This document shows positions 10,489 to 60,127 of a stretch of DNA of 64,000 nt, piece after piece. This stretch comes from an uncultured Planctomycetaceae bacterium (lineage in GTDB: Bacteria; Planctomycetota; Phycisphaerae; SM23-33): positions 12,106 to 76,105 of the forward strand of contig CAZXSK010000009.1 of assembly GCA_964642855.1 (NCBI GenBank), in the 5' to 3' direction. The notes under the pieces were generated by a model. The model did no database searches, had not been told where the DNA came from, and worked only from the letters and a program-made list of their open reading frames with translations. Positions within the stretch are counted from its first letter, which is position 1. The number at the start of each line of letters is the position of its first letter. The translations under genes and the position numbers were made by a program.

Positions 10489-11189
10489 CTACAGGCCGTA
10501 CATCAGGATTTGCAACGTGTAGGTATTCACGTGCGCAAGCACCCACCCGATTGGGTTGAACTGGGGCAGGAGCATCGGCACGAGAATCAGCGTCATCAGC
10601 ATCGGCCGGCCGTACTTGAGTTGCCATTCCATGAAAGGCCGGTGACGGTCGATGGGCAACTGTTCGCGCACGATGTGATGGCCGTCGAGGGGGAACAGGG
10701 GCACGAGGTTGAATACGCACAGGGCGACGTTGACGATCATCGTCATCAGCAGCATGAATCCGAACATGTCCACGATCGAGCGGCTGGGAAGAGTGCCGTT
10801 GAACGAGGCCCGAAGCAGCATCCACAGGTCGACCGTCTCGGTCTGGAGAAGGATTCGCAGGACGATCCCAGCCAGCAGCGCGAGGGAGAGATTGGTCAGG
10901 GGACCGGCCAGGGAGACCATGGTGTCGCCCAGTCTTCGGGGATGTAGGTTGGCGGGATTGACCGGGACGGGCTTCGCCCAGCCGAAGCCGATCAGGACGA
11001 TCGCGATCGTGCCGATCGGGTCCAGATGCGCCAGCGGATTGAGGGTGATTCGCCCGGCATTGCGCGCGGTGTCGTCTCCGAACGCCAGCGCCGTTCGCGC
11101 GTGGGCGTACTCGTGGAGGACGAGGCTCAGCAGCAGGGGTGGCAGCAGCAGGAGCTTCTGGAGCAGCCACTGTGGATCCGTGATCGGCA
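10489..11189 (-). CDS. site-2 protease family (M50) zinc metallopeptidase
   Basis: HEYAH (HExxH) in the first TM helix, a later LNPLAHLDP motif, and multiple TM helices. The ORF track extends to 12687, but that extension overlaps kdsD on the other strand and is discarded. Confidence 0.65.
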
Positions 11190-11343
11190 TGGATCCCCTT
11201 TTACTTGACCGCCTCCGGACGAACAAGCATAATGCGGACTTTGGCAGGGGCCCGGGAGGCATCCGGGCGTGCCTGCTTCCGCTGCAAACCAAACTCGCAT
11301 CTACCTTTACCGGCAGGGCGGGGCAACCCGCCGGCCTGCATGC

Positions 11344-12363
11344 ATGACAGAGCCAAACGACATTCCTCATCCGAACCTCGACATCGCACGCGGCGCCCTC
11401 CAGGCTGAGGGAGAGGCAATCGGCGACCTGGCCGGACAGGTCGGAGACGAATTCGCCGAGGCATGCCGGGCCATCTTCGCCTGTCCGGGTAAGGTCGTGC
11501 TGACGGGCATCGGCAAGGCGGGCATCATCGCCCAGAAGATCTCGGCTACGCTGGCGTCGACTGGGACGCTGAGCATCTTCCTGCATCCGGTCGAGGCGCT
11601 CCACGGCGATCTCGGACGGCTGCAGCGTGAGGACGTCGTCGTCGCGCTGTCGCACAGCGGGGCGTCGGAAGAGATCGTCCGCCTTCTGGACCACATCAAG
11701 GCGCGGGGCAGCACGCTCATCGCGGTAACGTCCGACGCAACAAGCCCGCTGGGACAGCATGCCGAGATCGTGGTCTGCTACGGGAAGGTTCGCGAGGCGT
11801 GCCCCCATCAGCTGGCCCCAACCGTATCCACCACCGTCATGCTTGCCCTGGGCGATGCCCTCGCACTGACGGTAATGACAATGCGGGACTTCAGCCCCGA
11901 GGACTTCGCTGCGTTTCACCCGGGCGGATCGCTGGGAAGGAGACTCATCAAGGTCGAAGACGCCATGTGGTTCACCAGGGGAGAGCGGCTGAACGTTGCT
12001 TCCGACAGCCTTACGCTTGGTGAGGCACTCGTGGAGGCAGAGCAGGCTGACATCCGCCGGACCGGGGCGATGCTTCTGGTCGACGATCAGGGGCGGCTGA
12101 GCGGCATCATGACCGACGCGGACCTGCGACGGGTGATCCTGGCCCATCGAGGCCAGGATGTTCTGTCCAGGCCAGTGAAGGAAGTCATGACCACCGACCC
12201 GACACGGGTTCGCGGGACCTCCCTGGCCAGTGAGGCGCTGGCGATCATGAACCAGCGACGCTTCGACGAACTGCCCGTCGTCGACGAAGAGGGCAAGCCC
12301 CTGGGCGTGATCGACGTGCAGGACCTGCTGGGCCTCAAGACCCTGGGGAACGCCATTGACTGA
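11344..12363 (+). CDS. kdsD: arabinose-5-phosphate isomerase (SIS + tandem CBS domains)
   Basis: SIS motif VLTGIGKAGIIAQKISATLASTGTLSIFLHP followed by two CBS domains. Adjacent to kdsC. Confidence 0.85.
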   Translation: MTEPNDIPHPNLDIARGALQAEGEAIGDLAGQVGDEFAEACRAIFACPGKVVLTGIGKAGIIAQKISATLASTGTLSIFLHPVEALHGDLGRLQREDVVVALSHSGASEEIVRLLDHIKARGSTLIAVTSDATSPLGQHAEIVVCYGKVREACPHQLAPTVSTTVMLALGDALALTVMTMRDFSPEDFAAFHPGGSLGRRLIKVEDAMWFTRGERLNVASDSLTLGEALVEAEQADIRRTGAMLLVDDQGRLSGIMTDADLRRVILAHRGQDVLSRPVKEVMTTDPTRVRGTSLASEALAIMNQRRFDELPVVDEEGKPLGVIDVQDLLGLKTLGNAID

Positions 12364-12892
12364 CCTGGCCAAAATCGAACTGCTGATCCTCGACGTCGAC
12401 GGCGTGATGACCGATGGCCGTATCCTGCTGACCGAATCCGGTGAGGAGATCAAAGGGTTCCACGTCCGGGACGGCTCGGGCATCAAGTACTGGATGCGCG
12501 TCGGCAAGAAGGTGGCGATCATCACCGGGCGGGGGTCGCCCGCGGTTTGTCGAAGAGCCGAAGAACTCGGCATCGACCTCGTGCGTCTGAATGCCAAGAA
12601 CAAGCTGCCCGCCCTGGAGGAGATCCTCGGTGAACTGGATCTTGCACCTGAGCAGGTGGCCGTGATCGGAGATGATCTGACGGACATTCCGTCGATGCTG
12701 CACGTGGGCTTCGCCGCCTGTGTCCCCGAGGCGCCCGAGGAAGTGCAGCGAGAGGTGGACTATGTTACCCGCACACCCGGCGGCCGGGGCGCCGTCCGCG
12801 AAGTGATCGAGTACATCCTCAAGCGGACGGGGCAGTGGAACAAGGTGCTCGAGCGATACTACAAGAACAAACCTCCGCGTGAGGCTGAGTGA
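12356..12892 (+). CDS. kdsC: 3-deoxy-D-manno-octulosonate 8-phosphate phosphatase (HAD)
   Basis: LLILDVDGVMTDG.. HAD motif I. ~178 aa. Overlaps kdsD by 8 nt. Confidence 0.8.
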   Translation: MTDLAKIELLILDVDGVMTDGRILLTESGEEIKGFHVRDGSGIKYWMRVGKKVAIITGRGSPAVCRRAEELGIDLVRLNAKNKLPALEEILGELDLAPEQVAVIGDDLTDIPSMLHVGFAACVPEAPEEVQREVDYVTRTPGGRGAVREVIEYILKRTGQWNKVLERYYKNKPPREAE

Positions 12893-15800
12893 TGAAACGA
12901 AGACTGCTTCTGCTCGTGGGGGGGCTGGTTGTGACGGTCGGCTCGCTGGCTGCCTACCAGTTTGCCACGTCCGGCGATATTCAGGTGTTCCGTCCCCGTT
13001 CCGGCGGAGGGAGCGTTACGGAGCGTCCGGACCCCAATGGCCCGGATAACCCCGTAGCCGGCTGGACGGTCATCATTCGTACGGATCCGGAAACCAACCG
13101 CCCGCTGCATCGTATCCGCGTGCGAGACTGGAAGAAGCAGGAGGGCGACCTGTATCTCCTCACCGAGCCGGTTGCTGAGTTTTTCCTTCGCAACGGCCGG
13201 CGTATTCTCGTTCGGGCGGATCGTGGTGAGGGCGTAGCCAGAGAAGTGGCGCGGACGCTGGATCTCAAGCGGGGCAGGCTGGAGGGGAATGTGCGGGCGT
13301 ATTTCTTCCGCTCTCCGGTCAGCAGGAATGTCGACGACCCGAACACCATCGAAGGCGTGCTGCAGGTGCATCTCGACAGCATCGACTTCGACAACGAAGC
13401 CCTTACCCTCGACAGCGACGGACCGGTGCACCTGTTCTCCGATGACGTCGACGTGCAAGGCCGGGGGCTTACGATCCGGTACAACGAGGCGCCTCGTGAA
13501 CTGGCGTTGCTTCGCCTGGCTCATGGCGATCGGCTTCGACTGCTCAATGCGCCGACCGGTCTTGGCGCGTTTGGGCTGCCGGGAGATGGTCAGACCAACC
13601 GGGAAGATCCCAACGCGCAGACGTCCGATGCCGTCGATCAGACGCAGGACGGTGACGAGCCCGAGGCGACGACGGACCAGCAAAATGCGGCCGCCGAAGC
13701 CCGCGAGGCGCAGAATCGGTACATGGCGACCTTCTCCCAGAACGTGCGCGTCGTGTCCGAAGATGGATCCATGACCGGGGCGGACGTGCTTTCCCTGGTG
13801 TTCGAAATGGGGGAAGGCTGGGCAGGCGCCGAGTCGTCCGGTGATACCGGTCGAGCCGGCGGGAACGGCCAGGCCGATACGGACCGCGATGAATCAGGCC
13901 CGGGTCGTCGAGAAGGCTCTTCGCAGACCGGTGGCCAGGAGGATCCGAACACGCAGGTCGTCGACATCCTCTGGACCGGGCCGCTGGAAATCGTGCCCAA
14001 AGGCTACGTCCCGCAACCGCAACGCGGTCGATATACGATCATCGCTTCGGGCGACCAACTCAAGCTGGACAGCAAGGAGATCAGCGCTGTCTGCGAGAGC
14101 CTGCACTACCGGACCCCGCAGGAGGTGGGTTTCCTGAGCGGATCGCGCGGCACGCCCGTGAGGCTTGCGCTTCCGGACGGTCAGCACGTAACCTGTCGCA
14201 GGATAACCTTCGACCGCTCCAAGAGCGAGATCTACCTGTCCGGACCGGGGGTCATGAGGCAGCTTCGCGTGGCCGATGCAAATGCACGGACCGTATCAAC
14301 AAGTGACCCCAATGCCTACGACGTGATCGCCTGGGAGGGTCGCGTGCAGGCATACTTCGAGGAGGTATCCTCTGCGGATTCGGCATCGGAAGCGTCCGGC
14401 CAGATTCGCATCAAGCGGGCTGTCTTCGAGGAGGGCGTGCGTTTCCGGAGGGCCGGTTCGGCGGACTATGTGTTGTGTGACAAGCTGGACGTGAGCATGA
14501 CTCGAACGGCCGAGGGCAAGACGTACGCCACCCGCGCGATCGCGGAGGGCAACGTGGAAGCCCGCCAGGGGACCGACGAGATCCTCGCCGGCAGCATGGA
14601 CCTGACCTTCGCCCCTGCAGACGCGTCGACCGAGAGTGGGGACGAGGGGGTCAAGGTCTCGCGAATGGAAGCCCGCGAGGACGTTCGCATCAAGAGCTTT
14701 CGTGACGATCCGAATCTGCCCGTTGTGATCCGTTGCGATTCGCTGGACGCCGACCGCGTGCGCAACACCGCGCTGCTGAAGGGCAAGCCCGCCGAGGTCC
14801 TCCAAGGCAGCCAGAAGATCACCGGCGGCACGATTCGTCTGGACCAGGGAGACGCCAGGAAGGGCGACGAGACCATGCGAGTCGAAGGCGAGGGACTGCT
14901 CCGATTCCTGGTCGATCGGGACGCGTCCGGCGGGAAGCTCGACCAGCCCCGGCCGGTGAAGATCGAGTGGAAGAAAGGAATGGTCTTCCAGTCCGACGGG
15001 CTGAAGGCGGATTTCAATCGGGACGTTGTCCTCACAACCGGCACCGACGAGTTGAAATGCCGGACCATGACTGTTGAGTTCCTGGAGCCGAACGAGCCGA
15101 CGACCGAGGAGGATCGAGACTCCACGGATCACAGTGGCCTGGGGATGGACATCCGGATGTATCGTAATCTGCGTCTCAAGACGGTGACGGCCCGCAAGGA
15201 TGTGTCCTTGAAAGGCAAGCGGGAGAACGAGAAGGGCAAGCTCCTTCGCCGTCTGACGCTGCTGACGCCGGAAGACGTGGTCTACCACGCTGCGGACCGG
15301 TCGGCACGGGTGAAGGGCTCGGGGCGGCTGCTGATCGAGGACTATAACCCGCCGAGTCGCAGCAAGTCCGGCGAGGATACCCGGGACGAAGGATACCTCG
15401 TGAGCCCGTCGTGGACCGCCTTTCAGTGGTCCGACAGCATGTCGCTGCAGGAGGAAGACCTGACGGTAACAATGACTGGCGACGTGGGCATGGTGCATCG
15501 CAGCGGCGATCAGGTGGTACTCTCTGACGACCTCGACCTGGCTTTCGACAAGGACAAGCTCCCCGATGGCAGGAAGACGGTTCTGGGCTGCGACCAACTC
15601 GTGGCTGTGTTCTCCCGTGCCGACGCGAACTCCGCCGATCCGAACCAGGTCGGGGTCGATAAGGCCATCGGACTGGAGGAGGATTTCAGCGGCCGGCTTG
15701 AACGCCTGGAAGCCCTTCGCGACGTGACGTTGCGGGACGGTTCGGCTCTCGTGGAGGATTGCCAGCGGATGCTGTACGACCGCGCCGATGACATCGTTCG

Positions 15801-15969
15801 GCTGGACGGGTACCTGCCCGAGAAGGGGCAGAGGCCCAGCAACGTTTCCCTACGATACGAAGACCGCAAGAGCGGCGCGATCCGCAAGGTTCTGGCCCCG
15901 CAGGTGATCTGGCATCCCCGAGCGAAGACCGCCCGGGCGATCAATGTTTCGGGTACCGGAGGGATCTGA
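12892..15969 (+). CDS. large membrane-anchored periplasmic protein with LptC/LptA(OstA)-like beta-jellyroll repeats
   Basis: ATG overlaps the kdsC stop (TGATG). N-terminal TM anchor (RRLLLLVGGLVVTVGSLAAY) followed by ~1000 aa. The strand pattern recurs several times, e.g. ..GNVRAYFF.., ..AEGNVEARQGTDEILAGSMDLTF.., ..TGGTIRLDQGD... The position after kdsD-kdsC is where lptC-lptA sit in other Gram-negatives. Confidence 0.5.
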   Translation: MKRRLLLLVGGLVVTVGSLAAYQFATSGDIQVFRPRSGGGSVTERPDPNGPDNPVAGWTVIIRTDPETNRPLHRIRVRDWKKQEGDLYLLTEPVAEFFLRNGRRILVRADRGEGVAREVARTLDLKRGRLEGNVRAYFFRSPVSRNVDDPNTIEGVLQVHLDSIDFDNEALTLDSDGPVHLFSDDVDVQGRGLTIRYNEAPRELALLRLAHGDRLRLLNAPTGLGAFGLPGDGQTNREDPNAQTSDAVDQTQDGDEPEATTDQQNAAAEAREAQNRYMATFSQNVRVVSEDGSMTGADVLSLVFEMGEGWAGAESSGDTGRAGGNGQADTDRDESGPGRREGSSQTGGQEDPNTQVVDILWTGPLEIVPKGYVPQPQRGRYTIIASGDQLKLDSKEISAVCESLHYRTPQEVGFLSGSRGTPVRLALPDGQHVTCRRITFDRSKSEIYLSGPGVMRQLRVADANARTVSTSDPNAYDVIAWEGRVQAYFEEVSSADSASEASGQIRIKRAVFEEGVRFRRAGSADYVLCDKLDVSMTRTAEGKTYATRAIAEGNVEARQGTDEILAGSMDLTFAPADASTESGDEGVKVSRMEAREDVRIKSFRDDPNLPVVIRCDSLDADRVRNTALLKGKPAEVLQGSQKITGGTIRLDQGDARKGDETMRVEGEGLLRFLVDRDASGGKLDQPRPVKIEWKKGMVFQSDGLKADFNRDVVLTTGTDELKCRTMTVEFLEPNEPTTEEDRDSTDHSGLGMDIRMYRNLRLKTVTARKDVSLKGKRENEKGKLLRRLTLLTPEDVVYHAADRSARVKGSGRLLIEDYNPPSRSKSGEDTRDEGYLVSPSWTAFQWSDSMSLQEEDLTVTMTGDVGMVHRSGDQVVLSDDLDLAFDKDKLPDGRKTVLGCDQLVAVFSRADANSADPNQVGVDKAIGLEEDFSGRLERLEALRDVTLRDGSALVEDCQRMLYDRADDIVRLDGYLPEKGQRPSNVSLRYEDRKSGAIRKVLAPQVIWHPRAKTARAINVSGTGGI

Positions 15970-16002: not shown

Positions 16003-16851
16003 TCAGGGGGCGTCGGCGTCGGCAAGTGACTCGTTCAGCGACCCGCTACGGAAGCCCGACAGATCGAGCGACACGTAGCGGTAGCCTGCCTCGTGCAGAC
16101 GACGGACGATCAACTCACGGTTTCCCATCGCATCGGCCAGCCGATCTTCCGGCACCTCGACCCGTGCGACGCTGTCGTGGTCGCGTACGCGACAGATATC
16201 GAAACCCAACGCCCGCAGGCTCGCTTCCGCGCGGTCGATCCGTGAGAGTTTCCCCGAGGTGATCTCGCTGTGGTAGGGGACTCGGCTTGCCAGGCATGCC
16301 ATCGACGGCGCTCCTGCTGTGGGAAGCCCCAACGCTCGGGAGGCGGCGCGGACGTCGCCCTTGGTCAGGCCCGCCTCAAGAAGCGGCCGGACGACACCGA
16401 GTTCCTCCTCCGCCTTGAGGCCCGGCCTGTAGTCGCCGATGTCCGATGCATTGGTGCCGCTGAGCACGGCCTGGATGTCGAGCTTCTCGGCCAGCGCGGC
16501 CAGTTGAGAAAAGATATTCTTCTTGCAGTGATAGCACCGGTCGGGCGGGTTGCTTGCGAAGGCTGGATCGGCGAGGGGATCGATGGCGACTCTCTCCAGG
16601 CCGCCAACGAGGTCCCGTGCCAACGCCTCGGCGCGGTCCTGCTCGAAGGCCGGGAAGATCTCGCCCGACGCGGTGGCTGCACGCACCTTGCTCCTGTTGA
16701 GCGTCCCCGCGGCAAGCTTCAGCACCAGTGTGGAATCCACCCCGCCAGAGAGAGCAACCAGAACGCTGCCGCACCGGGCGATACGATCCGCCGCGGCCCG
16801 GACCTTTTCTCGCAGGAGAGGATCTCCGATGTTCTGCAGGATCGCGTTCAT
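16003..16851 (-). CDS. PP-loop ATPase, LarE-like ATP-dependent sulfur transferase family
   Basis: SGGVDS PP-loop motif, with a conserved Cys in ..SMACLASRVPY.. as in LarE/TIGR00268 proteins. Confidence 0.6.
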   Translation of the reverse strand: MNAILQNIGDPLLREKVRAAADRIARCGSVLVALSGGVDSTLVLKLAAGTLNRSKVRAATASGEIFPAFEQDRAEALARDLVGGLERVAIDPLADPAFASNPPDRCYHCKKNIFSQLAALAEKLDIQAVLSGTNASDIGDYRPGLKAEEELGVVRPLLEAGLTKGDVRAASRALGLPTAGAPSMACLASRVPYHSEITSGKLSRIDRAEASLRALGFDICRVRDHDSVARVEVPEDRLADAMGNRELIVRRLHEAGYRYVSLDLSGFRSGSLNESLADADAP

Positions 16852-16871
16852 GCGATATCCTAGCCGTCCGA

Positions 16872-18176
16872 TCAGGAGAATTCGCCGATGACGTCGCGAT
16901 GGGCCTGCATGCAGGCATCGATTGCATCGTGACCGGCTGGTTTGTTCAGGACGGTCGGGTCTTCCTCGATGCATTCGTGAACCAGCGCGCGGTCGCGGGT
17001 TCTGGCTGCCCGGACGATGCGGTCCGTCTGCCTGGCGGCGTCTTGCAGATAGGGCTGGACTGTTTCGGGAATCTGTACGGTTTCGATTACAAGACCTTCG
17101 GCCGACGCTGCGGCCGGGGTCTCCACGAACACGCCTTCCGGCAGTTGCGGAATCTGACCGGTATTGACCGTGTTGACCGCGTCGAAATCGGTCTGGCAGG
17201 CGCCGAGCAGTGCGGCTACCAGATCCATCGGTCTTTCCCACGAACCTCCTTCGACGAGAGGCCGGTAGGGCTTGCTCCCTTCGGCGATCTGCCTGAGCAT
17301 GCCGACGCGTCGGTTGACCTCGTCGGCCGAGCCGTGGGAGGAGTGTCCGCGGTTGGTTGCTCCTTCGCGAGGGGGCAGGAAATCCTGGGTATGGTGATCG
17401 TTGGGCACGAGGAGATAGCCGGTCTCGCGGAGCATGTCATCACCCAGTTGCCATCCCGAGGTCCCACCGGCAGCCAGCTTCTCTCGCAGCGCAGGCAGCA
17501 GATCCTCGCCGGTGTTGCGGTCCCGAATCTTGACCGCCCACGAGAAGTGGTTCAGGCCGCCGAAGGTAACGTCCCATCGCTCACGGGCCTCGGTGAAGGG
17601 GTGGCTGATCCTCCCGCCTTCCAGGAGGCGATGGACCATGGCGTAGCCTTCCAGCGCTGCCGAGCAGAACCCCACCGTGCGGATTCCGTCTTCGTGCATC
17701 GCCTGGCAGACACGCGGCAAGGGGTTGGAGACCGTCAGGAACATTGCATCCGGGCAGGTCTCCTTCATGTCGCAGGCCAGGTCGCGCATGAATGCGATTT
17801 GTCGCAGGGAGTAGCTGATGCCGGCCACGCCCCCGAACTCCGTGACGAGCAGGTCAGCATCCTGTTCGGCCATAACTCGGCAGTCGGTCTCGAACCGCTG
17901 TCGCAGCTGGGGAGCCGCGCAACAGAGGACATAGCTCGCGCCGTCAAGGGCTTCACGGCGGTCCGTGGTCTCGGTGACGCGCACGTCCAGCTGCAGATCG
18001 TCGGCGACCCGTCTGGTCACCGCGGCCATGGCGAGGAGCATCTCGCGGGAGACGTCCATCATGGCCAGCTCCACGTTCTGCAACTTCCGGCGCACGAGGG
18101 CGTCGCGAAGGACGCCCGGGCCGAAGACAAAGCTGCCCGCCCCGATGACGGCGATTCTTGTTGGTTGTTGTGGCAT
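16872..18176 (-). CDS. glycoside hydrolase family 4 (NAD+/Mn2+-dependent glycosidase)
   Basis: N-terminal Rossmann motif RIAVIGAGSFVFG, a ..CAAPQ.. region, and the TVSNP motif (FLTVSNPLPRVCQAMHEDG) typical of GH4. Confidence 0.7.
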   Translation of the reverse strand: MPQQPTRIAVIGAGSFVFGPGVLRDALVRRKLQNVELAMMDVSREMLLAMAAVTRRVADDLQLDVRVTETTDRREALDGASYVLCCAAPQLRQRFETDCRVMAEQDADLLVTEFGGVAGISYSLRQIAFMRDLACDMKETCPDAMFLTVSNPLPRVCQAMHEDGIRTVGFCSAALEGYAMVHRLLEGGRISHPFTEARERWDVTFGGLNHFSWAVKIRDRNTGEDLLPALREKLAAGGTSGWQLGDDMLRETGYLLVPNDHHTQDFLPPREGATNRGHSSHGSADEVNRRVGMLRQIAEGSKPYRPLVEGGSWERPMDLVAALLGACQTDFDAVNTVNTGQIPQLPEGVFVETPAAASAEGLVIETVQIPETVQPYLQDAARQTDRIVRAARTRDRALVHECIEEDPTVLNKPAGHDAIDACMQAHRDVIGEFS

Positions 18177-37987: not shown

Positions 37988-40393
37988 CTACTGCTGCTCT
38001 TGCTCGAGGCCTTCGTCGTCGGTCGGGTCGTAGGTGTCGACCTGCAGATCGGCGAAGCGCGTCTTGCCCATCCTGAGGATGGTCAGGCGGACCTTTTCTT
38101 TGCCGTCCTGCTTGGCCTGGGCGATCCGGTCGCGAAGCTGGCGGACGCCCGTCACGGGCTTGTCGTCGATCCGCGTGATGATCTCGTTCGGCCAGATCTT
38201 GGCGACCAGTGTCGGCGAGCCCGGCTCGACCTTTACGATGATCACGCCGGGGTCGTCCTTCTCGAGCTTGAGTCCGGATCGGACCTCGTAGGTGAGGTTC
38301 TTGACGGTCAGCCCGAGCTTGCGGTTCTGCCAGCGGGTGGCGGACTCAAGATCCGGCGGGGCCATCTCGATCTTGTAATCGATCGTGTCGGTCTTCCCGC
38401 CGCCTTTCTCGTCGCGCCGGTAGTAGGTGATCGTCACCTTCTTGCCGATGCCCACCGCGTCCATCGCGCGGGTAAGGAAGCTCTGGCGGCTTTTCCAGAC
38501 CTGCGGGGCCGGGCCTTCGTCGCCGCCGCCTCCGTAGTATCGGTACCGCCATCCGTAGTCGCGGTCCTGCACGTAGTCGCTGCTGAACTCGAACGGATAG
38601 GGCATGGTCTCGGCCTTGGCCTTGAGGAGGATGTCCCCCACCTCGATGCCCGCCTTGGCGGCCGGGCTGTCAGGATAAACGACATTGACCATGAACCCGA
38701 TCTGGCCGTCCTTGGTGGGCTTCTCGACCTTGAGCTTCTCGGCGAGGTCCTTGTTCATGCCCACGTACTCGACCCCGAACCACGCGCGCCTGCGGGCGAG
38801 TTCTCGCGGCTTGACCTTGATCTTCGGATCCATGTGCTTGTCCGGCTCGGACAGCGCCTTGCGAAGCGAGTCGACCAGGAAGATCCGCTGCTCGGTGATC
38901 TGGTTGCCGTAGTAATACCTGCGGGAGGCTTCCAGGCGTCTGGCTTCCTCGTCCTCGATGCGTTCCTGCACGAACAGGCCGGCGAGCCTGCCGTCGAAAG
39001 TCAGCAGCAGTTCGCCTCCGCGGAGGCCCCGCATGGGGTACCAGTGGTACTTGCCCTCGTAGCCGCGCTGTTTGCCGATCAGCCGGTTGGTCTTGAGGTC
39101 GAGGTACTTGGCCCCGAACTTCTTGCGCATCGTGCCGACCCAGAACGGTTTCATCCGTGGCAGGTCGGATTTCGCCATCGCTACCGCGCCGGGGACCTTG
39201 CTGCCCTCGGGCATGCGGACCACGAACGCCGCGAAGCTCTTGTAGGCGCCCACGAAGTCCAGGGGCGTTCGGCGGGAGTTGGAGTGCTTCAGGAAAAGGC
39301 TGCTGATCTGGTCGGCGGTTTCCCGCTCGAGGTTCATCGGCACGAGGATGTCCCGATCGCTGATGGCGATTCCGTACAGTTCAACTTCCCGCCCCGAAGC
39401 GCCGCCGTAGCCGTAGTCGCTGTCTCCGCTGGAACGGAGTTTCAGGATGATCTCCTGGATCGCGGGAGTCAGCTCCTTGCGGATCGACTCCTTGGTCTTT
39501 TCGAGCTTGTCCGTGGAAACCCCGTCGGCCTTGACGAGGTCGGGCCCGAGCCAGAGGGCTTCTTCCTGTTTGACGTCGAAATACGATCCGGCGGAAAGCC
39601 CCACCGGCTTGCCGTCCTTACGGGCGACGATCCCGGGCTGGCCTCCTGCGCCGGAGTAGCGGTAGCTCGACCGATACCCGTAGAAGACGTTGTGCACCTT
39701 CCCCCGTGCGTAGCGCACGGTGGGGGGCAGGGGGCTGAAGCGCAGCCGCCACTCGTCGTCGACCTGGCTCATGCCCGCTTCCTGCAGCGAGGTCATCACG
39801 CCGTCGGAGAGAGGGGCGAACTCCAGGGGCCTGGTGGCTTTGGTGCCGGCCTTGTCGAGCTTGAGGATCATCGCCGGGGCGTCGATCAGGAGTTTCTCGC
39901 GCGTGGCGGAAAAGGTCTTGCCGCCAATGGTCTCGACCTCGACCTTCTTGATGAACCGCTGCTCGATGCCGTCGTCCCCGATAAGCACCTTGCCCTCGTC
40001 TAGCACCACGCCGACGGTCTCGGCCGGGCGTTTCTTGTCGATGTACTCGCTGTAGAGTTCGTTGATCTGCCAGTCCTGCTGCTGGACGTCGACGCTCTCG
40101 CGGGTGTCCTTCTGGTACCAGGTGCGGACGATCACGAACCCGTCCCGGGCTGCGCTGAGAAGCTCCTGCGGGATCAGCTCATCGTTGGCGTCCTTCTTGG
40201 TCTTCTCGTCGCCGGTATCGTTGGCGGAATCTTCTTCCGAAGTGTCGGCGATTTCGACGGTGACTTCTGCGTCGGGCTGGTCGTCCGGCGCGGAGACGAC
40301 TTCTCCGTCTTGTCCGAATGTCGAACCCGCCACTGCCAGGAGCAGGCAGAGCATCCAGGCGATGGAACCGGTTGCGTTTCGCTTGTTTGTCAT
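37988..40393 (-). CDS. secreted PDZ-domain protein (HtrA-partner, probably non-catalytic)
   Basis: Signal peptide (IAWMLCLLLAVAGSTFG). Two C-terminal PDZ-like segments (..GFMVNVVYPDSPAAKAGIEVGDILL.. and ..GVIIVKVEPGSPTLVAKIWPNEIITRIDDKPV..). No GNSGGP serine-protease motif. 4-nt gap to upstream htrA. Confidence 0.6.
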   Translation of the reverse strand: MTNKRNATGSIAWMLCLLLAVAGSTFGQDGEVVSAPDDQPDAEVTVEIADTSEEDSANDTGDEKTKKDANDELIPQELLSAARDGFVIVRTWYQKDTRESVDVQQQDWQINELYSEYIDKKRPAETVGVVLDEGKVLIGDDGIEQRFIKKVEVETIGGKTFSATREKLLIDAPAMILKLDKAGTKATRPLEFAPLSDGVMTSLQEAGMSQVDDEWRLRFSPLPPTVRYARGKVHNVFYGYRSSYRYSGAGGQPGIVARKDGKPVGLSAGSYFDVKQEEALWLGPDLVKADGVSTDKLEKTKESIRKELTPAIQEIILKLRSSGDSDYGYGGASGREVELYGIAISDRDILVPMNLERETADQISSLFLKHSNSRRTPLDFVGAYKSFAAFVVRMPEGSKVPGAVAMAKSDLPRMKPFWVGTMRKKFGAKYLDLKTNRLIGKQRGYEGKYHWYPMRGLRGGELLLTFDGRLAGLFVQERIEDEEARRLEASRRYYYGNQITEQRIFLVDSLRKALSEPDKHMDPKIKVKPRELARRRAWFGVEYVGMNKDLAEKLKVEKPTKDGQIGFMVNVVYPDSPAAKAGIEVGDILLKAKAETMPYPFEFSSDYVQDRDYGWRYRYYGGGGDEGPAPQVWKSRQSFLTRAMDAVGIGKKVTITYYRRDEKGGGKTDTIDYKIEMAPPDLESATRWQNRKLGLTVKNLTYEVRSGLKLEKDDPGVIIVKVEPGSPTLVAKIWPNEIITRIDDKPVTGVRQLRDRIAQAKQDGKEKVRLTILRMGKTRFADLQVDTYDPTDDEGLEQEQQ

Positions 40394-40397
40394 GGCC

Positions 40398-41960
40398 TTA
40401 CTCCTCTTTCAGGTAGTCTTTGGACCAGTCGAGAACGATCCAGTTCTTCCGGCTGTGGCGCTTGATCGTGATGAGCACCTTCTTCTCGACGAGTTTCTTG
40501 TCGTTGACCAGTGCTTCGTAGGCCTTGCGGACGTCGTCGAGCGTTTTGACGGGCGTATCGCCGATCTTGAGGATCACGTCGTCTTCGTTGAGGCCTGCGT
40601 CGGATGCGTTGCCGGGGTACCGCACGCCCTGGATGTACACGCCGCCTTCGGGCTGGAAGTAGTGCAGCGTGGGATTCTTGTACTGCGAGATCTCCTTGAC
40701 GGTCATGTTCCACCGCTTGCAGTCGAAGTCTTCGCCCTCGAACTTGCCACGGATGATCGGCGTGAGGGTGAACGTCTCGACCTTCCTGCCGCCGAGGTCC
40801 CAGCCCTTGACGCGATCGGAGATCGCCATCGCTTCCTCCACGGTCAGTGCGGGTGAGCCATTGGGATCGGTGCCGGCTTCGTCCGAAGCTCCGGACTCCC
40901 TGACCATGACATTGGCATCGGCCGAGGCGGAGCTCTTGCGGGCGACCACCACGCCAACGGGATCGTCGACCGAGAGGTCGGCCAGCATTCTTTCAATGGC
41001 CGGGAGATTCTCGACGTATTGTCCCTCCACGGTCCGGTCGCCGACCAGCAGCAGGATGTCGCCGTCGAGCAGGCCGGCCTTCATCGCCGGCGAATCACTG
41101 TCGACGCTGCGGACCAGCACGCCGTGGTCGGAGTTGGTGAACGTGTTGGAGTTGAAGTCGTTCAGTGCCTGCAGCTGCAGGCCGGTGTAGGCCCGCTGGA
41201 CCTTGACCGGCCATTCGTTGGGGTCGGTGTTCTCGGCGCGGGCCCGCAGGCGGGAGATCACGTCCTTGACGACGTTGGAGGGGATCGAGAACCCGATGCC
41301 GTCGGCGTAGCCACCCATGCCCAGGGTGTTGATGCCGATGATCCGGCCGTTGATGTCCACCAGCGGCCCGCCGGAGTTGCCCGGGTTGATTGGCGCGTCG
41401 GTCTGGAACCAGAGGTTGAACCTGTGCTGCGACGAGAAGCCCAGGTACCGCCGGGTATTGGAGACGATGCCCTGGGAGATGCTCCGCTGGAACCCAAAGG
41501 GCGAGCCCAGCGCCATGGCGACCTGGCCTTCCTCGACCCGGTCGCTGTCGCCGAACCTGGCAACGGCCAGGGGGGCGTGGCCTTCGGGCAGCTCGAGCTT
41601 CAGCAGCGCCAGGTCGGTTTCGGGGTCGAGCCCGACGACCACAGCCGGGACCTGCTCCTTGTCGCCCAGCACGCAGTTGACCTCGATGGCCTTTTCGGCG
41701 ACGTGGTTGTTGGTCACGACGTACCCGTTGGCGTCGATGATGACACCCGAGCCGTAGACCTCCATGCGTTCGATCTCGCCGCCTTCAAAGCTTTCCTGGA
41801 TCGGCTTGACGAACACAAGCGCCGGATACACGCGGTCCTTCGCGACGGCCTTGGCTTCCTCCAGGTTCACCTGCTTCCTGCCGGTCGGGTCGCAGCCTGT
41901 CGAAAGGGAGAGTATCCCCCCGGCCAGGACCCCAAACAGGACCATTCCGCGCTTGCTCAT
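40398..41960 (-). CDS. htrA: HtrA/DegP-family serine protease with two PDZ domains
   Basis: His (..VVTNNHV..), Asp (..DLALLK..) and Ser (..GNSGGPLV..) of the trypsin-like triad. Lipobox (LSLSTGC) after the signal peptide. Confidence 0.85.
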   Translation of the reverse strand: MSKRGMVLFGVLAGGILSLSTGCDPTGRKQVNLEEAKAVAKDRVYPALVFVKPIQESFEGGEIERMEVYGSGVIIDANGYVVTNNHVAEKAIEVNCVLGDKEQVPAVVVGLDPETDLALLKLELPEGHAPLAVARFGDSDRVEEGQVAMALGSPFGFQRSISQGIVSNTRRYLGFSSQHRFNLWFQTDAPINPGNSGGPLVDINGRIIGINTLGMGGYADGIGFSIPSNVVKDVISRLRARAENTDPNEWPVKVQRAYTGLQLQALNDFNSNTFTNSDHGVLVRSVDSDSPAMKAGLLDGDILLLVGDRTVEGQYVENLPAIERMLADLSVDDPVGVVVARKSSASADANVMVRESGASDEAGTDPNGSPALTVEEAMAISDRVKGWDLGGRKVETFTLTPIIRGKFEGEDFDCKRWNMTVKEISQYKNPTLHYFQPEGGVYIQGVRYPGNASDAGLNEDDVILKIGDTPVKTLDDVRKAYEALVNDKKLVEKKVLITIKRHSRKNWIVLDWSKDYLKEE

Positions 41961-42200
41961 ACGCCGCTCCTTCATGTCAGCAAGGTTCGAGAACTTGAGT
42001 CGGCCCGAACGCTCCCGGACGGGCCGTTTCGATGCGAAGGCATCCCCGCTGCGTGCCATACCGGATTATGCACGCCTCCGGGGGGCAGGCAAGGAGAACC
42101 TTCAGCAGTAAGACGCGTGAACCCCCTGACTTGTTCTGCTCGCATGAGAACGGGCCGACGGGAAAGCCCCGCCGGCCCGGGTGTGTCTGGGCGTGGAGTA

Positions 42201-44837
42201 CTACTTGCCCATCTTCTCGAACTCGATGTTCCCGTCCTTGTCGAGGGAAATCACCTGATCGCCGACCACTACCTTCCCGCCCTTGACTTCCGCCTTGGGG
42301 GCGTCGTCTGCCGTCGGGAAGTAAAGCGTCAGCGTCTTGCCGTCGAGCTTCACGCGCTGGCCATCGGCCTTGCCGGTGGTCACCAGCAGCACGTCGGCGC
42401 CACTTCTGCCGGTGAAGTCCACGCCGAAGGCGGTTCCGTTGGCAACCGTCAGCGAACTGGTATCGCCCTGGGGGGTGTGCGACCAGTGGCGAACGCGTCC
42501 GCTCTTGACCGAGCCCCAACTGATGTGCTTGCCCATCGTGTTGATGCGCAGCGCCTTGTCGGGTTTGGCAGCCATGTAGCCGCTGGTTCGTTCGGTCAGG
42601 AGGGTGATGACCGTGTCCTTGCCGTCCTTCCAGCGATTTCGCCAGGCGTAGAAGCCCCAGTGGCTGTCCCGGAAGCAGTGGGGCAGGACCTCGGCGGGGT
42701 TCCTGGCCTTGACGTCGGTCGGCCAGTTGACGAAAGCCGATACCGCGAACTGCGGGTACTTGCTGGCGGTGTCGTAGGGATGGCCTGCCTGGGCATCGGA
42801 TTCGGCGAGGAACTGCTGGTAGTACCACTTGAGGGCGGACTTCTCGTCGGGCTGGACGCCCGCGAAGCCCACGGCGAAGTAGCCTGCACCGCTCTGTCCG
42901 CTGCGCGCCCAGACATTGTGTCCGTAGCTGCCGCGGATCGGCCAGAAGTCAGGCCGGCCGTTGCGGATGACCGTCTGGTAGATCCACTTGAGGGTCATCA
43001 TGCGGGCGTTGGAGCGTTCGACGTTGACAAAGTCGATGCCGGCGACGTTCTTCCAGGCCTGCATGGCACTGATGAATGCGATCTGCGAGGACATCGAGCC
43101 CGTGCCGTCGCCCTCGGCGAAGAATCCGCCGTCGCCGAAGCCCTGGCTGAGGTTGCGGATCATGCTGGATCGGGCGACCTTGAGCAGCGTGTCGATTTTG
43201 TCCTGGTCGACCCATTTCTCGCCGGTGACAGCAAGCAGCGCCAGCGACGCGCCGCCGACCTGCATGCCGAAGTGGTTGCTGGAGGGAGGCATCGTTCCCC
43301 GGGCGAGACTTTCCAGATCGATCGCCTTGCCGGAGTCTTCCTCGTCTTCTTCCTTGTCCTTCTTGCCGCCTTCGGAGTATTCCGCCAGGGCGAGCGTGAA
43401 CTTCTTGCGGGTTTTCTCGTCGAGGGCGTCGTAGAGCAGATCGTAGGCGACGGCATACCAGCCGATCGACGGACCGGCGCGAAGCGCGCCGCCGGGCTTG
43501 CGGAAGCTGTAGCGGTCGTCGCGATCGCGCTGCCCCTCGAGGGCTTTCTCGAAGCAGATCTTGCCGAACTCGGCGTACTTGTCCTTCTGGGTGAGCTGAT
43601 AGAGCAGCCCGTAGCCGGCGGCATGTCCGATGGTATACGCACCGGGCTTGTCGAGTACGGAATTGCTGTACCCGCCGCCCATGTAGGCGTGGGTGGCGTC
43701 GGAGAAGACCTTCGTCATCGTCTCGCCTTCCTTGCCGTCCAGCAGGTAGCCCAGACGCTTGAGGATCGCCTTGCCCTCGGAGGTTTCCATCTTCTTGCGA
43801 AGTGCGCCCAGATCGCTCCGGCGGAACAGCAGCCGCGGGTGCTCGCCGGCCTTGGGAGCATCGTGGCCTTTGAGTTCGCGATACCAAGGCCTGTTGTCCG
43901 GCGCGGCGAGGGTGTCCAGCCCTTCCCGCCACGTGCCGTCAAAGCTGCCCTCCACGACCTGGTCTTCCTTGCCTTCGATGGAAACGGTGGCCTTGTAGGT
44001 GCCCACGATCAGGTTGCTGAGATACCTGCCCTCGAATTCGTAGGTGTACACGCAGGGCACCATGTCGAGGGTCATCGTGGGGATGACCACCTTGCCCTCG
44101 AACCGGTTGCGGGTCATCGAGATTTCACTGCTGGCCGCTTTGACGGGCGTCCGCTGATAGGCGCGGAACTTCTGACTGAGCAGCCCGTGGCTGAGGGAAT
44201 GGATCTTCTCGCCGTCGTCGGCGCTGACCCAGACCACCATGCAGCGGTTGCCGTACGAGGGTTTTCCCCCCACCAGCGCGCCCTGCATGTTCATCGTCAG
44301 CGTCACGTCTTCGGGCAGCGTGAAGGGCTCCTGCGGATTGCTCCAGCCGGTGACTTTGCCCTTCCTGCTGAAATCCTGCACGCTGGCGTCGTCGCTGGTG
44401 ATCTCGACGACCTCGTAGGTGCCCGAGATCTTATGGTCGTCGCTGACCTTGGCGTCGATGTCCACGGTGATGTAGAACGGCTTGTGATCGATCGGAATCC
44501 ACAGGTCGGGGGTGAAGTGGACCTTGAACTTGCCCTTCACCCGGCCGTCCTTGATCGGCACGTCGGAGAGGTCCGCGTAGTACCAGCTGCGGTTGTAGGT
44601 CTTCTTCGCGCCGCGTTTGTCGGGGTCCCGGCTGGAGCCTACACAGCCGAGCCACTGGCCGTTTTCCTCGCGCGTGTAAATCGAAAGCGGCTTCTTGCCG
44701 CCCTTGAAAAGCCCCAGCAACCGGATCTCCCAGCCTCGGGCGGTCTTCTTCTCATCATCGGCTGAATCGTCAGCCAGGCAGACGGAGGTGCCCAGCAGGA
44801 TCAGAAGCGCCGGCGTCAGCATTCCCAAACGTTTCAT
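42201..44837 (-). CDS. secreted polysaccharide-lyase-like protein (alpha/alpha toroid + beta-sandwich; heparinase II/III-like)
   Basis: 878 aa with signal peptide. Lys/Asp-rich composition typical of secreted CAZymes. Tentative resemblance to heparinase II/III-type lyases, but no decisive motif located by eye. Divergently placed next to sulfatase + GH28. Confidence 0.35.
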   Translation of the reverse strand: MKRLGMLTPALLILLGTSVCLADDSADDEKKTARGWEIRLLGLFKGGKKPLSIYTREENGQWLGCVGSSRDPDKRGAKKTYNRSWYYADLSDVPIKDGRVKGKFKVHFTPDLWIPIDHKPFYITVDIDAKVSDDHKISGTYEVVEITSDDASVQDFSRKGKVTGWSNPQEPFTLPEDVTLTMNMQGALVGGKPSYGNRCMVVWVSADDGEKIHSLSHGLLSQKFRAYQRTPVKAASSEISMTRNRFEGKVVIPTMTLDMVPCVYTYEFEGRYLSNLIVGTYKATVSIEGKEDQVVEGSFDGTWREGLDTLAAPDNRPWYRELKGHDAPKAGEHPRLLFRRSDLGALRKKMETSEGKAILKRLGYLLDGKEGETMTKVFSDATHAYMGGGYSNSVLDKPGAYTIGHAAGYGLLYQLTQKDKYAEFGKICFEKALEGQRDRDDRYSFRKPGGALRAGPSIGWYAVAYDLLYDALDEKTRKKFTLALAEYSEGGKKDKEEDEEDSGKAIDLESLARGTMPPSSNHFGMQVGGASLALLAVTGEKWVDQDKIDTLLKVARSSMIRNLSQGFGDGGFFAEGDGTGSMSSQIAFISAMQAWKNVAGIDFVNVERSNARMMTLKWIYQTVIRNGRPDFWPIRGSYGHNVWARSGQSGAGYFAVGFAGVQPDEKSALKWYYQQFLAESDAQAGHPYDTASKYPQFAVSAFVNWPTDVKARNPAEVLPHCFRDSHWGFYAWRNRWKDGKDTVITLLTERTSGYMAAKPDKALRINTMGKHISWGSVKSGRVRHWSHTPQGDTSSLTVANGTAFGVDFTGRSGADVLLVTTGKADGQRVKLDGKTLTLYFPTADDAPKAEVKGGKVVVGDQVISLDKDGNIEFEKMGK

Positions 44838-57695: not shown

Positions 57696-59969
57696 GTGGC
57701 GCGGGCCCGGTTATTGTGCGCGTTGATCCTGGTGGCCCTGTGGCTGGGGACGGCACGTGGCGCCCACGCCGACCAGCGCCCATCCGTGCCGCCCAGCCGG
57801 CAGGAGGTCGACCAGGCCGTTCGGAAAGCCACCGCCTTCCTGCTGGATCAGCTCGACGGCAACGGCATCTGTAAGAAGGAGTTCAAACCAGGCAATGTCC
57901 GCTACCCGGGCAGGACGGCGCTCTGCGCGTACGCCCTGGCCGGGGCGGGCGTCAAGCCGCGCAACGAACCCAAGCTGGAAAAGGCGCTGGAGTGGCTCGT
58001 CCGCCAGGAGCCCAACGGCGTGTACCCCGTGGCGATGCGCACGTGCGCCCTGGCCGCTTCGGTCGAGCGCAAAAGACTCCGGCAGTTCCGCAAGTTCATC
58101 GCCCGCGACGCCAAGTGGCTTGTCGCAGCTGCGGGGGACAAGGGCCAGTACACCTACGGCCCGCTCAACGGCTCCGAGAGCGATTTCTACGACAACTCCA
58201 ACGCCCAGATCGCCGCGATGGCGCTCGGGGCGGCTGCCGACGTGGTCGACGTGCCGCTGAAACACTGGCAGCGCGTCCGGCAGTGGTGGCAGGCCCAGCA
58301 ACAGCCCGACGGCGGGTGGGCCTATCGCGTGCCGCGCGGTACGTTCCGTGTCAAAAGTTACGGGTCGATGACCGCGGCCGGGCTTGCGACGCTGCTGATC
58401 TGCTCGGAGCATCTTTCCAGCCGGGAGGTCGTCCGGTGTGCCGCCTCGCCGGCGGACAAGTCGATCGACGAGGCAATGGGGTGGCTGGAGAAGAACTACA
58501 CCGTCCGCGAGAATCCGGGCAAGGGGGTGCAGTGGCAGTACTACTGGCTGCTGGGCCTGCAGCGCGTCGGCAAGGCAAGCGGCAGGCGGTACCTCGGCGG
58601 GAAGGACTGGTACGCCGACGGGGCGAAGCTGCTGCTCTCCCGGCAGCGGAGTGACGGCAGTTGGGGGCTGGGCGATCGTATCGCCGAAACCGCCTTCGCG
58701 CTGCTGTTTCTTTCGCGCGGCAGGCAGCCGGTGATCGTCAACAAGCTGCAGTACCCCGGCCGATGGAACACGCGTCCGCGGGACGCATCGAACTTCGCCC
58801 GGTGGATGTCACACGCCTTCGAGACGCCCACGAACTGGCACGTGGTAGACGCCAACTCGCCGCTGGAGCACCTGCAGGAAGCGCCGCTGCTGTACGTCTC
58901 CGGGGCCGGACCGATCCAACTGACCGACGCGCAACTGGCTAGGCTCAGGCGGTACGTGCTTCGCGGCGGGATGATCGTCTCGGAAGCGGCGTGCGGCAAC
59001 GGCGACTTCACGCTCGACATGCAGCGGATCTATGAGAAGATCCTGCCCGAGTGGAAACTGACGACCGTGGCCGAGGACTCCGCGCTGCGGTCCGTGCAGT
59101 ACGAGCTGGACAAGCCCCCCGTGCTTGCGATTTCCAACGGCGTTCGCACGCTGGCGGTGCACGCCCCGCGCGAGCTGTCGCTGGCGCTGCACTTCTACCG
59201 CGAGGAGGACGACCGCGAGATTTTCGAGACGCTGGCCAACGCGTACATGGCTGCGACCGACAGCGAGATCCGCCTGCCCGGCGACGTGCCCGCCTGGCCG
59301 GCCGACCCGAACGGAAAGCCCGGGAAGACCCTCACGGTTGCGCGGGTAAAACACGAGGCCAACTGGAACCCCGAGCCCCTGGCGTTCGATCGGCTGGCTG
59401 GGATTCTCCGGCGCGACCACGGCGTGGGGTTGAAGGTCACCGGTGGCGTGCCGATCGAGAAGCTCGACCCGGGCAAGCATCCGCTGGCGGTGATGACCGG
59501 CACGCGGTCGCTGAAACTCTCGGCTGGGCAATCCAGGGCGCTCAAGGCGTACCTGCAGAAGGGCGGGACGCTGATCGTCGACGCAGCCGGGGGATCGAAG
59601 CCGTTCGCCACCTCCGTCGAGGAGCAGATTCTCACGCTCCCCGACGCCGCCGCGCAGACGCGCCTGCTGCTCAGCGATAAGGTCTTCTCCCGGGGTCTAA
59701 TGCCGATGAAGTCCGTGACCTACCGGCGCGACGTTGCCCTGCGCATGAGCGAGCGAACCCGCAACCTGCCCCGGGTGGTCGGCGTCGCCAGCGGAGGGCG
59801 GATGGTCATCTTCTACTCGGCCGAAGACCTGACGGCCGGCTTGGTGGGCTACCGTCATGCGGGAATCCGCGGGTACGCGCCGAAGTCCGCAACCGCGATC
59901 ATGGCCAATCTGCTGCACTACGCGAGCAACCAGGAGATCGCCGATTCGTCGCTGCTGGGCGGTGAATGA
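57696..59969 (+). CDS. secreted protein: prenyltransferase/terpene-cyclase-like alpha/alpha-toroid repeats + C-terminal DUF4159-like domain
   Basis: Signal peptide (LLCALILVALWLGTARGAHA). QxxDGGW-type repeats (..QQPDGGWAY.., ..RQRSDGSWGLGD..) as in squalene-cyclase/prenyltransferase beta-subunit folds. The C-terminal region (..LLYVSGAGPIQLTDAQLARLRRYVLRGGMI..) resembles DUF4159. Confidence 0.5.
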   Translation: MARARLLCALILVALWLGTARGAHADQRPSVPPSRQEVDQAVRKATAFLLDQLDGNGICKKEFKPGNVRYPGRTALCAYALAGAGVKPRNEPKLEKALEWLVRQEPNGVYPVAMRTCALAASVERKRLRQFRKFIARDAKWLVAAAGDKGQYTYGPLNGSESDFYDNSNAQIAAMALGAAADVVDVPLKHWQRVRQWWQAQQQPDGGWAYRVPRGTFRVKSYGSMTAAGLATLLICSEHLSSREVVRCAASPADKSIDEAMGWLEKNYTVRENPGKGVQWQYYWLLGLQRVGKASGRRYLGGKDWYADGAKLLLSRQRSDGSWGLGDRIAETAFALLFLSRGRQPVIVNKLQYPGRWNTRPRDASNFARWMSHAFETPTNWHVVDANSPLEHLQEAPLLYVSGAGPIQLTDAQLARLRRYVLRGGMIVSEAACGNGDFTLDMQRIYEKILPEWKLTTVAEDSALRSVQYELDKPPVLAISNGVRTLAVHAPRELSLALHFYREEDDREIFETLANAYMAATDSEIRLPGDVPAWPADPNGKPGKTLTVARVKHEANWNPEPLAFDRLAGILRRDHGVGLKVTGGVPIEKLDPGKHPLAVMTGTRSLKLSAGQSRALKAYLQKGGTLIVDAAGGSKPFATSVEEQILTLPDAAAQTRLLLSDKVFSRGLMPMKSVTYRRDVALRMSERTRNLPRVVGVASGGRMVIFYSAEDLTAGLVGYRHAGIRGYAPKSATAIMANLLHYASNQEIADSSLLGGE

Positions 59970-60127
59970 GGATTCCCGCGTTCGGCCCGGGTCGTTGGAG
60001 CAGCAGACCTGCCCGGCGACCCGCCCAAAGACCGCGGGGAAATTCTCTGGCGATTCCTTATACTTGAGCAGGGGCTGCAAGTAGCTGAATCGAGATCGGA
60101 ATCAGGCGAGGGACCGGGAGAAGAGCA

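Follow-up and report, generated by a model that had tools for sequence, protein, structure and literature searches.

A giant LptC/LptA-like gene behind kdsD and kdsC in Phycisphaerae and its candidate role as a single-chain lipopolysaccharide bridge

What stands behind the Kdo (3-deoxy-D-manno-octulosonate) synthesis genes kdsD and kdsC in a planctomycete, and could its product serve lipopolysaccharide (LPS) transport? In Escherichia coli the position after kdsC is held by lptC–lptA–lptB. We examined the corresponding position in 64,000 nucleotides from an uncultured Planctomycetaceae bacterium of the Phycisphaerae (contig CAZXSK010000009.1, positions 12,106 to 76,105; this whole stretch is called the window, and coordinates refer to it). 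A single long gene is found there, referred to below as the giant gene. It seems probable that this gene encodes the periplasmic arm of the LPS transport (Lpt) machine as one polypeptide, and the idea that the product is a fused, elongated LptC–LptA(n) bridge is well supported computationally. According to the open reading frame (ORF) calls, three genes lie head to tail:

11344–12363, plus strand: kdsD, arabinose-5-phosphate isomerase of the KpsF/GutQ type with SIS and CBS domains, first step of Kdo synthesis
12356–12892, plus strand: kdsC, Kdo-8-phosphate phosphatase (HAD-IIIA)
12892–15969, plus strand: giant LptC/LptA-like gene, 1025 amino acids plus stop, its ATG overlapping the kdsC stop

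The A of the giant gene ATG (12892) also ends the TGA stop of kdsC (12890–12892), giving a TGATG junction. The stop codon lies at 15967–15969, so that the product has 1025 residues, or 1026 if translation starts at the GTG at 12889; NCBI holds an identical 1025-residue protein record. The gene order, the TGATG overlap and the single product of about 1025 residues had all been read from the DNA in the original prediction, and the ORF and junction check confirmed them. A spurious ORF of high-GC DNA was considered and rejected on account of the coding-like GC content by codon position (GC3 0.77, GC2 0.46), the hundreds of full-length homologues and the kept gene order.

Family, modules and predicted fold of the giant protein

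To which family does the protein belong? We scanned the giant protein and 46 mutually diverse members of its family against Pfam. The sole family found in the giant protein is PF03968 (LptA/LptD_N), with a score of 42.2 bits (cut-off 20.4), and the same family was matched by all 46 members. PF06835 (LptC) was matched by 17 of the 46 at E ≤ 0.01, and the only other match was a weak OstA_2 in a single member (E 0.0036). A generic adhesin or beta-helix protein was rejected because neither the giant protein nor the 46 members gave a Pfam match to families of this kind. In three homologues (P0004, P0007 and P0008) the PF03968 match lies in the middle of the protein and covers nearly the whole model; in a fourth (P0012) it is C-terminal, at residues 1007–1109 of 1154. 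Profiles of the family gave well-supported matches in the PDB only to LptH, LptA and the N-terminal domain of LptD (residues ~25–115 of LptD), all at profile positions ~546–702. The giant protein thus belongs to the OstA/LptA superfamily, as the Pfam cut-off and the fold matches described below indicate. On the NCBIfam LptA model TIGR03002 it scored 32.2 bits at residues 606–667, below the equivalog cut-off of 71.7; since it is also 1025 residues long, multi-modular and anchored, it does not qualify as a strict LptA orthologue.

The LptC matches bear on the N-terminal part. In P0004, P0007 and P0008, which are ~33% identical to the giant protein, PF06835 is above its cut-off (23.8–30.2 bits against 21) at residues 59–201, directly following the anchor, and the LptC match lies in the N-terminal domain in all homologues for which coordinates are given. 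Matching of segments to Lpt families had been proposed as a check on the original prediction, and it yielded PF03968 above threshold in the giant protein together with these LptC matches in the homologues.

In order to detect repeats, we compared the profile of a 126-sequence family alignment with itself. Residues 278–809 aligned with 509–973 (probability 99.3, E 1e-20, 395 columns) and residues 705–1024 with 278–668 (probability 96.5), and segment-wise profile comparisons concur with this whole-length result. The LptC-like domain is followed by ~3.8 modules in tandem, each ~200 residues long; together with it they make up about five beta-jellyroll modules of LptC/LptA type (~4.8 counted). The parts of the giant gene, all on the plus strand, are as follows (residue numbers in brackets; pLDDT, predicted local distance difference test):

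12901–12963, plus strand: N-terminal hydrophobic segment (4–24), read as a probable uncleaved signal anchor (transmembrane helix), LptC-like
12964–13062, plus strand: variable Pro/Gly-rich linker (25–57), predicted disordered (pLDDT <50 at 19–57), low alignment occupancy
13063–13572, plus strand: module 0, LptC-like beta-jellyroll (58–227), 13 predicted strands, LptC matches of homologues on the equivalent residues
13573–13704, plus strand: acidic low-complexity linker (228–271), predicted disordered
13705–14415, plus strand: module R1, LptA-like repeat (272–508), from the self-alignment; 353–462 with 586–734 at 96%
14416–15003, plus strand: module R2 (509–704), matched directly by sequence to LptA, LptH and the N-terminal domain of LptD
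15004–15696, plus strand: module R3, LptA-like repeat with three disordered loops (705–935), 96.8% with R2
15697–15966, plus strand: module R4, partial (~80%) repeat at the C-terminal end (936–1025); 939–1014 with 383–445 at 90%

Scanned alone, module R2 reaches 32.7 bits on PF03968, and the PDB matches to LptH, LptA and the LptD N-domain at ~546–702 fall within it. Module R1 holds a disordered Gly/Ser/Asp-rich loop at residues 308–352. Repeated strand motifs of OstA/LptA type had been quoted when the stretch was first read, and all were found in the giant protein: GNVRAYFF at residues 132–139, AEGNVEARQGTDEILAGSMDLTF at residues 551–573 and TGGTIRLDQGD at residues 644–654. The insert loops at residues 228–271 and 308–352 (within 13573–13947 of the window) are acidic and Gly/Ser-rich here and Pro/Thr/Ala-rich in relatives; the length of such loops explains much of the size spread of the family, which runs from 1000 to 1250 residues. 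Two cysteines that lie far apart in sequence are highly conserved: Cys401 is present in 97% of the 126 members, Cys900 in 83%.

Does the predicted fold agree with this division? With an alignment of 12 sequences as input, AlphaFold2 gave a full-length model (mean pLDDT 70, predicted TM-score (pTM) 0.56) that shows a helix at residues 2–27 followed by ~59 beta strands and is otherwise all beta, with disordered stretches at 19–57, 228–271, 308–352, 735–751, 821–833 and 911–933. Predicted strands number 12–14 per module, compared with 15–16 in LptC and LptA. When the full model was compared with the PDB by Foldseek, LptA, LptH and LptC were matched with probability 1.0 and TM-scores per target of ~0.6–0.7. 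The region of the query to which these matches belong could not be placed from the full-model output, and we therefore modelled residues 690–1025 alone (pLDDT 76, pTM 0.74). This C-terminal third had no sequence-level match to PDB structures in the profile search. Foldseek again placed LptA first, then LptH and LptC, with probability 1.0; the TM-scores per target were 0.66–0.71 for most E. coli LptA chains and lower for others. The separate model therefore indicates that the jellyroll character reaches the C-terminus. The AlphaFold check suggested with the original prediction thus gave an N-terminal helix, beta structure throughout and confident matches to Lpt proteins, the C-terminal third included.

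The best E-values (1e-7) in the full-model search went to full-length LptD chains, which raises the possibility that the protein is the LptD of this lineage, with an N-terminal jellyroll and a large C-terminal outer-membrane barrel. These alignments are globally poor, however (TM-score 0.10–0.18, root-mean-square deviation >30 Å). The barrel family PF04453 gave no match in the giant protein or in the 46 members, and the C-termini of the family, mostly Arg and non-aromatic, carry no outer-membrane-barrel signal; on these two grounds an LptD-like barrel was rejected. Moreover, the C-terminal third resembles LptA in fold and no barrel, the LptA-like module recurs in the C-terminal half, and the N-terminus is an anchor-type segment. 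What the protein has in common with the N-terminal domain of LptD is the Pfam family PF03968, whereas the 26-strand C-terminal barrel of LptD and its aromatic beta-signal are missing. We regard this explanation as largely refuted and scarcely credible.

Anchor, gene neighbourhood and cargo

How is the protein held in the envelope? Residues 4–24 are its only hydrophobic segment, in line with the single N-terminal transmembrane anchor proposed earlier, and they are modelled as a helix. Across the family, the N-termini begin with MKRR followed by 18–22 uncharged residues up to a conserved Tyr or Trp. The –3/–1 pattern of small residues is not kept, and several members (P0005 and P0007 among them) lack small residues at the cleavage position. 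The conserved hydrophobic run, together with the missing cleavage residues in several members, makes a signal anchor that stays uncleaved, like that of LptC, the more likely reading.

The neighbourhood of the gene in relatives points to the cargo. When 1.84 billion representatives of 50% identity clusters were searched exhaustively with HMMER, 1063 matched at E ≤ 1e-3, of which 202 reached E ≤ 1e-30; among the best 150, almost every match spans the full length, and the proteins nearly always measure 1000–1250 residues. The relatives examined come from Phycisphaerae metagenome-assembled genomes and from the complete genome of the cultured Fontivita pretiosa B-254 (order Tepidisphaerales), whose homologue of 1076 residues, encoded at ~3,104,020–3,107,250 of NZ_CP191258.1, passes PF03968. 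Upstream DNA is available for 22 related loci, and in every one of them kdsD (50–66% identical) directly precedes the giant gene. Between the two genes, tblastn placed kdsC in 11 of the 22; in the other loci, Tepidisphaerales-type relatives among them, it was not detected by tblastn. The order kdsD–(kdsC)–giant gene is accordingly kept in every related locus examined, which was one of the checks proposed at the outset. In close relatives the ATG of the giant gene overlaps the kdsC stop as ATGA or TGATG, so that the overlap is conserved and with it a possible translational coupling; such an overlap would couple expression of the giant gene to Kdo synthesis. Because the linkage to kdsD/kdsC is universal, the cargo would be a Kdo-containing lipid, i.e. 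LPS.

Synteny extends further in one relative (L001, giant protein 32% identical), with which the window has in common an MFS gene, a CYTH gene, kdsD, kdsC, the giant gene, a PP-loop gene, an M24 peptidase gene, accB and accC. In a distant subfamily (22% identity) the genes form a lolCE–lolD–kdsD–giant cluster (L003/L004, 6730–13063), a neighbourhood of outer-membrane biogenesis. This cluster ties lipoprotein release, Kdo synthesis and an Lpt-like bridge together.

Several observations weigh against a complete Lpt arm. The giant protein's own N-domain stays under LptC thresholds: on TIGR04409 it scores 12.3 bits against 38 (residues 85–113), and Pfam LptC was matched neither by the whole protein nor by the N-domain scanned alone. 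An hhalign comparison of the N-domain with an LptC alignment that was nearly all enterobacterial (>80% identical) was colinear over 169 columns at 17% probability. The LptC-like identity of this domain, which is below threshold by sequence, would thus rest on the homologues, the anchor and the gene position. When modules R1, R3 and R4 were scanned in isolation against Pfam, none of them matched an Lpt family by sequence; they were assigned to Lpt modules because of the internal repeats and the structure prediction. Finally, no lptB, lptF/G or lptD was found in the window or in ~10 kb flanks of five annotated relatives, so that the Lpt ABC transporter is only a presumed partner. Within the 64-kb window, a tblastn query with E. 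coli LptB detected no ABC ATPase, and neither LptD nor LptF/G is encoded by any of the ten largest other ORFs. It had been stated earlier that lptB does not come next and that the following gene is on the opposite strand, and this is the case: the gene 3′ of the giant gene (16003–17241, minus strand) is PP-loop/NAD-synthase-like.

Could the protein be a long soluble substitute for LptA only, one that loses its signal peptide by cleavage and is handed LPS by a separate LptC encoded elsewhere? A possible signal-peptidase site, SLA|A, follows residue 20, the N-domain fails the LptC models as just described, and automated annotation, which names some family members LptA, LptC or ‘LptA/OstA family’, mostly uses LptA in IMG and PGAP. 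Against this stand the family-wide run of 18–22 residues ending in a conserved aromatic, the several members lacking cleavage residues, the homologues whose N-domain passes Pfam LptC, and the place of the giant gene, which is that of lptC in E. coli. We therefore consider a soluble LptA substitute unlikely.

A second question is whether the cargo is LPS at all, since an OstA-fold bridge might carry some other envelope lipid or glycolipid, in the manner of AsmA, TamB or YhdP, independently of LptB2FG. The design of an N-terminal anchor followed by a beta groove of ~1000 residues recalls TamB and YhdP, Foldseek also lists the bridge-like lipid transfer protein LPD-3 (E 7e-4, probability 0.63), and no Lpt ATPase gene is adjacent. 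However, AsmA, AsmA_2 and TamB (DUF490) gave no Pfam match in the giant protein at E ≤ 1 or in the 46 members at E ≤ 0.01, every confident sequence and fold match is to an Lpt protein, and the linkage to kdsD/kdsC is universal. A bridge for another lipid is in our judgement very unlikely. We infer LPS as the cargo of the giant protein and Lpt proteins as its partners.

The identities of the two upstream genes are supported by their NCBIfam scores. The kdsD product reaches 284 bits on the KpsF/GutQ model TIGR00393 (cut-off 203.7) and 270 bits on the KdsD equivalog model, which is under the strict cut-off of the latter. Its start was taken as the ATG at 11344, and a GTG further upstream, at 11269, is a possible alternative. 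The kdsC product scores 174 bits on the KdsC model TIGR01670 (cut-off 107), and its TTG start lies within kdsD, so that the two genes share 8 nucleotides. In the gap 5′ of kdsD there is one further element:

11205–11233, plus strand: sigma-70-like promoter match, TTGACC-17-CATAAT, possible operon promoter

This site agrees with the consensus at 10 of 12 positions and is the one site found against 0.3 expected; it is a consensus match only, and little is known about promoters in planctomycetes. A gene of the M50 (site-2 protease) family (10489–11259, minus strand) separates the CYTH gene from kdsD on the other strand; it is not at the equivalent position in L001.

Elsewhere in the window, a cluster at 37988–44837 (minus strand) comprises an 801-residue PDZ-only protein (37988–40393), an HtrA-like Trypsin_2+PDZ protease (40398–42059) and, adjoining the protease, an 878-residue protein (42201–44837) that matches no Pfam family and whose N-terminus resembles a signal peptide. 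The cluster possibly serves periplasmic quality control, with the 878-residue protein as an uncharacterised partner. At 57696–62377 (plus strand), a 757-residue DUF4159 protein precedes a 749-residue protein that combines a DJ-1/PfpI domain (residues 31–200) with an ExbD/TolR-like domain (residues 656–739), an unusual pairing.

A proposed single-chain bridge and its meaning

How might such a protein work? In E. coli the bridge runs from LptF/G through LptC and LptA to LptD, and the N-to-C order of modules in the giant protein agrees with this order from inner to outer membrane. We propose that the N-terminal transmembrane helix would anchor the protein in the inner membrane and join it to an LptB2FG extractor encoded elsewhere, from which the LptC-like jellyroll would take LPS. 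The approximately four covalently joined LptA-like modules would then provide a head-to-tail hydrophobic track through the periplasm, and the C-terminal edge, presumably that of module R4, would dock on the N-terminal jellyroll of LptD at the outer membrane. As in E. coli, ATP hydrolysis at the inner membrane would drive LPS along the bridge. Whereas in E. coli LptA oligomerization determines how many units the bridge has, their number would here be set genetically. A continuous groove may run along the protein. As a rough estimate, the predicted span would be ~15 nm by strand count and ~25 nm by residue count, for which ~4 nm per jellyroll was used because four jellyrolls are put at 16 nm (PMC5575297). 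In that work, the minimal four-jellyroll assembly, with an estimated length of ~16 nm, is set against a periplasm of ~21 nm, and monomeric LptA suffices for the bridge in E. coli (PMC5575297).

How does this compare with known proteins? The giant protein is most like LptC and an LptA oligomer fused in one chain. E. coli LptC (PF06835), a bitopic inner-membrane protein of 191 residues, likewise has a single N-terminal transmembrane anchor followed by an OstA-type jellyroll, and is likewise encoded directly after kdsC; the N-domains of homologues of the giant protein pass its Pfam model. The giant protein differs from it in being more than five times longer, in an N-domain under LptC thresholds, in the missing lptA–lptB behind its gene and in the covalent attachment of the downstream jellyrolls. 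E. coli LptA and Pseudomonas LptH (PF03968) are soluble jellyrolls of ~160–185 residues that form head-to-tail oligomers. With them the protein has in common a module, R2, above the Pfam cut-off, the confident fold match, the repeated A-x-G-x-V strand motifs and the head-to-tail arrangement of units. Unlike them, it is membrane-anchored and carries about four copies of ~200 residues in one chain, with disordered insert loops, so that concatenation replaces non-covalent association.

TamB, YhdP and YdbH (AsmA-like) and the multi-MCE protein LetB are also long anchored polypeptides, whose repeated units determine how far a lipid conduit reaches between two membranes. The design is analogous, but the Pfam scan detected no homology and the folds differ, an OstA jellyroll in one case and a beta-taco or MCE rings in the other; the context of the giant gene speaks for LPS and not for phospholipid. 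Separately, we noted a 286-residue enterobacterial protein with both PF06835 and PF03968 (P0177, on an ENA contig of 5.4 kb), which could be an LptC–LptA fusion, whether natural or derived from an assembly error or frameshift.

Taken together, the domain homology, fold similarity, internal repeats, anchor and kdsD/kdsC linkage support the fused, elongated LptC–LptA bridge that had been suggested in the original prediction. Its further suggestion, that the length of the protein is linked to the wide planctomycete periplasm, is unsupported. A bolder proposal, towards which we lean slightly less than we doubt it, is that Phycisphaerae dropped separate LptC and LptA altogether, so that one length-defined polypeptide forms the entire periplasmic LPS bridge and acts as a natural molecular ruler, its module number setting or matching the spacing of the membranes.

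We found no description of a giant or fused LptC/LptA in Planctomycetota in the open-access literature. A 2012 survey of outer-membrane markers in planctomycetes covered only LptD and BamA (PMC3422733), and a 2025 review of the phylum makes no mention of Lpt (PMC12673574). According to the same review, planctomycete periplasms appear extended, and the internal membrane invaginations of other planctomycetes appear absent in Phycisphaerae (PMC12673574). The LptA/OstA label is already given to the family by annotation pipelines. Since only one module is recognizable by sequence in a protein of ~1000 residues, LptC and LptA may escape detection in such genomes.

The copy number of LptA in the E. 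coli bridge, and whether that bridge is stable or dynamic, are still debated. If the bolder proposal holds, a gene would directly reveal the stoichiometry and continuity of the Lpt bridge, which could then be studied in the form of one stable particle. A natural single-chain LptC–LptA(n) would be a bridge of fixed stoichiometry and hence attractive for cryo-electron microscopy of a complete LPS conduit from inner to outer membrane, and F. pretiosa B-254, a cultured carrier with a complete genome, makes experiments possible. Furthermore, such a protein would allow the number of modules to be compared with the width of the periplasm across lineages, and it would help to explain how planctomycetes build their envelope.

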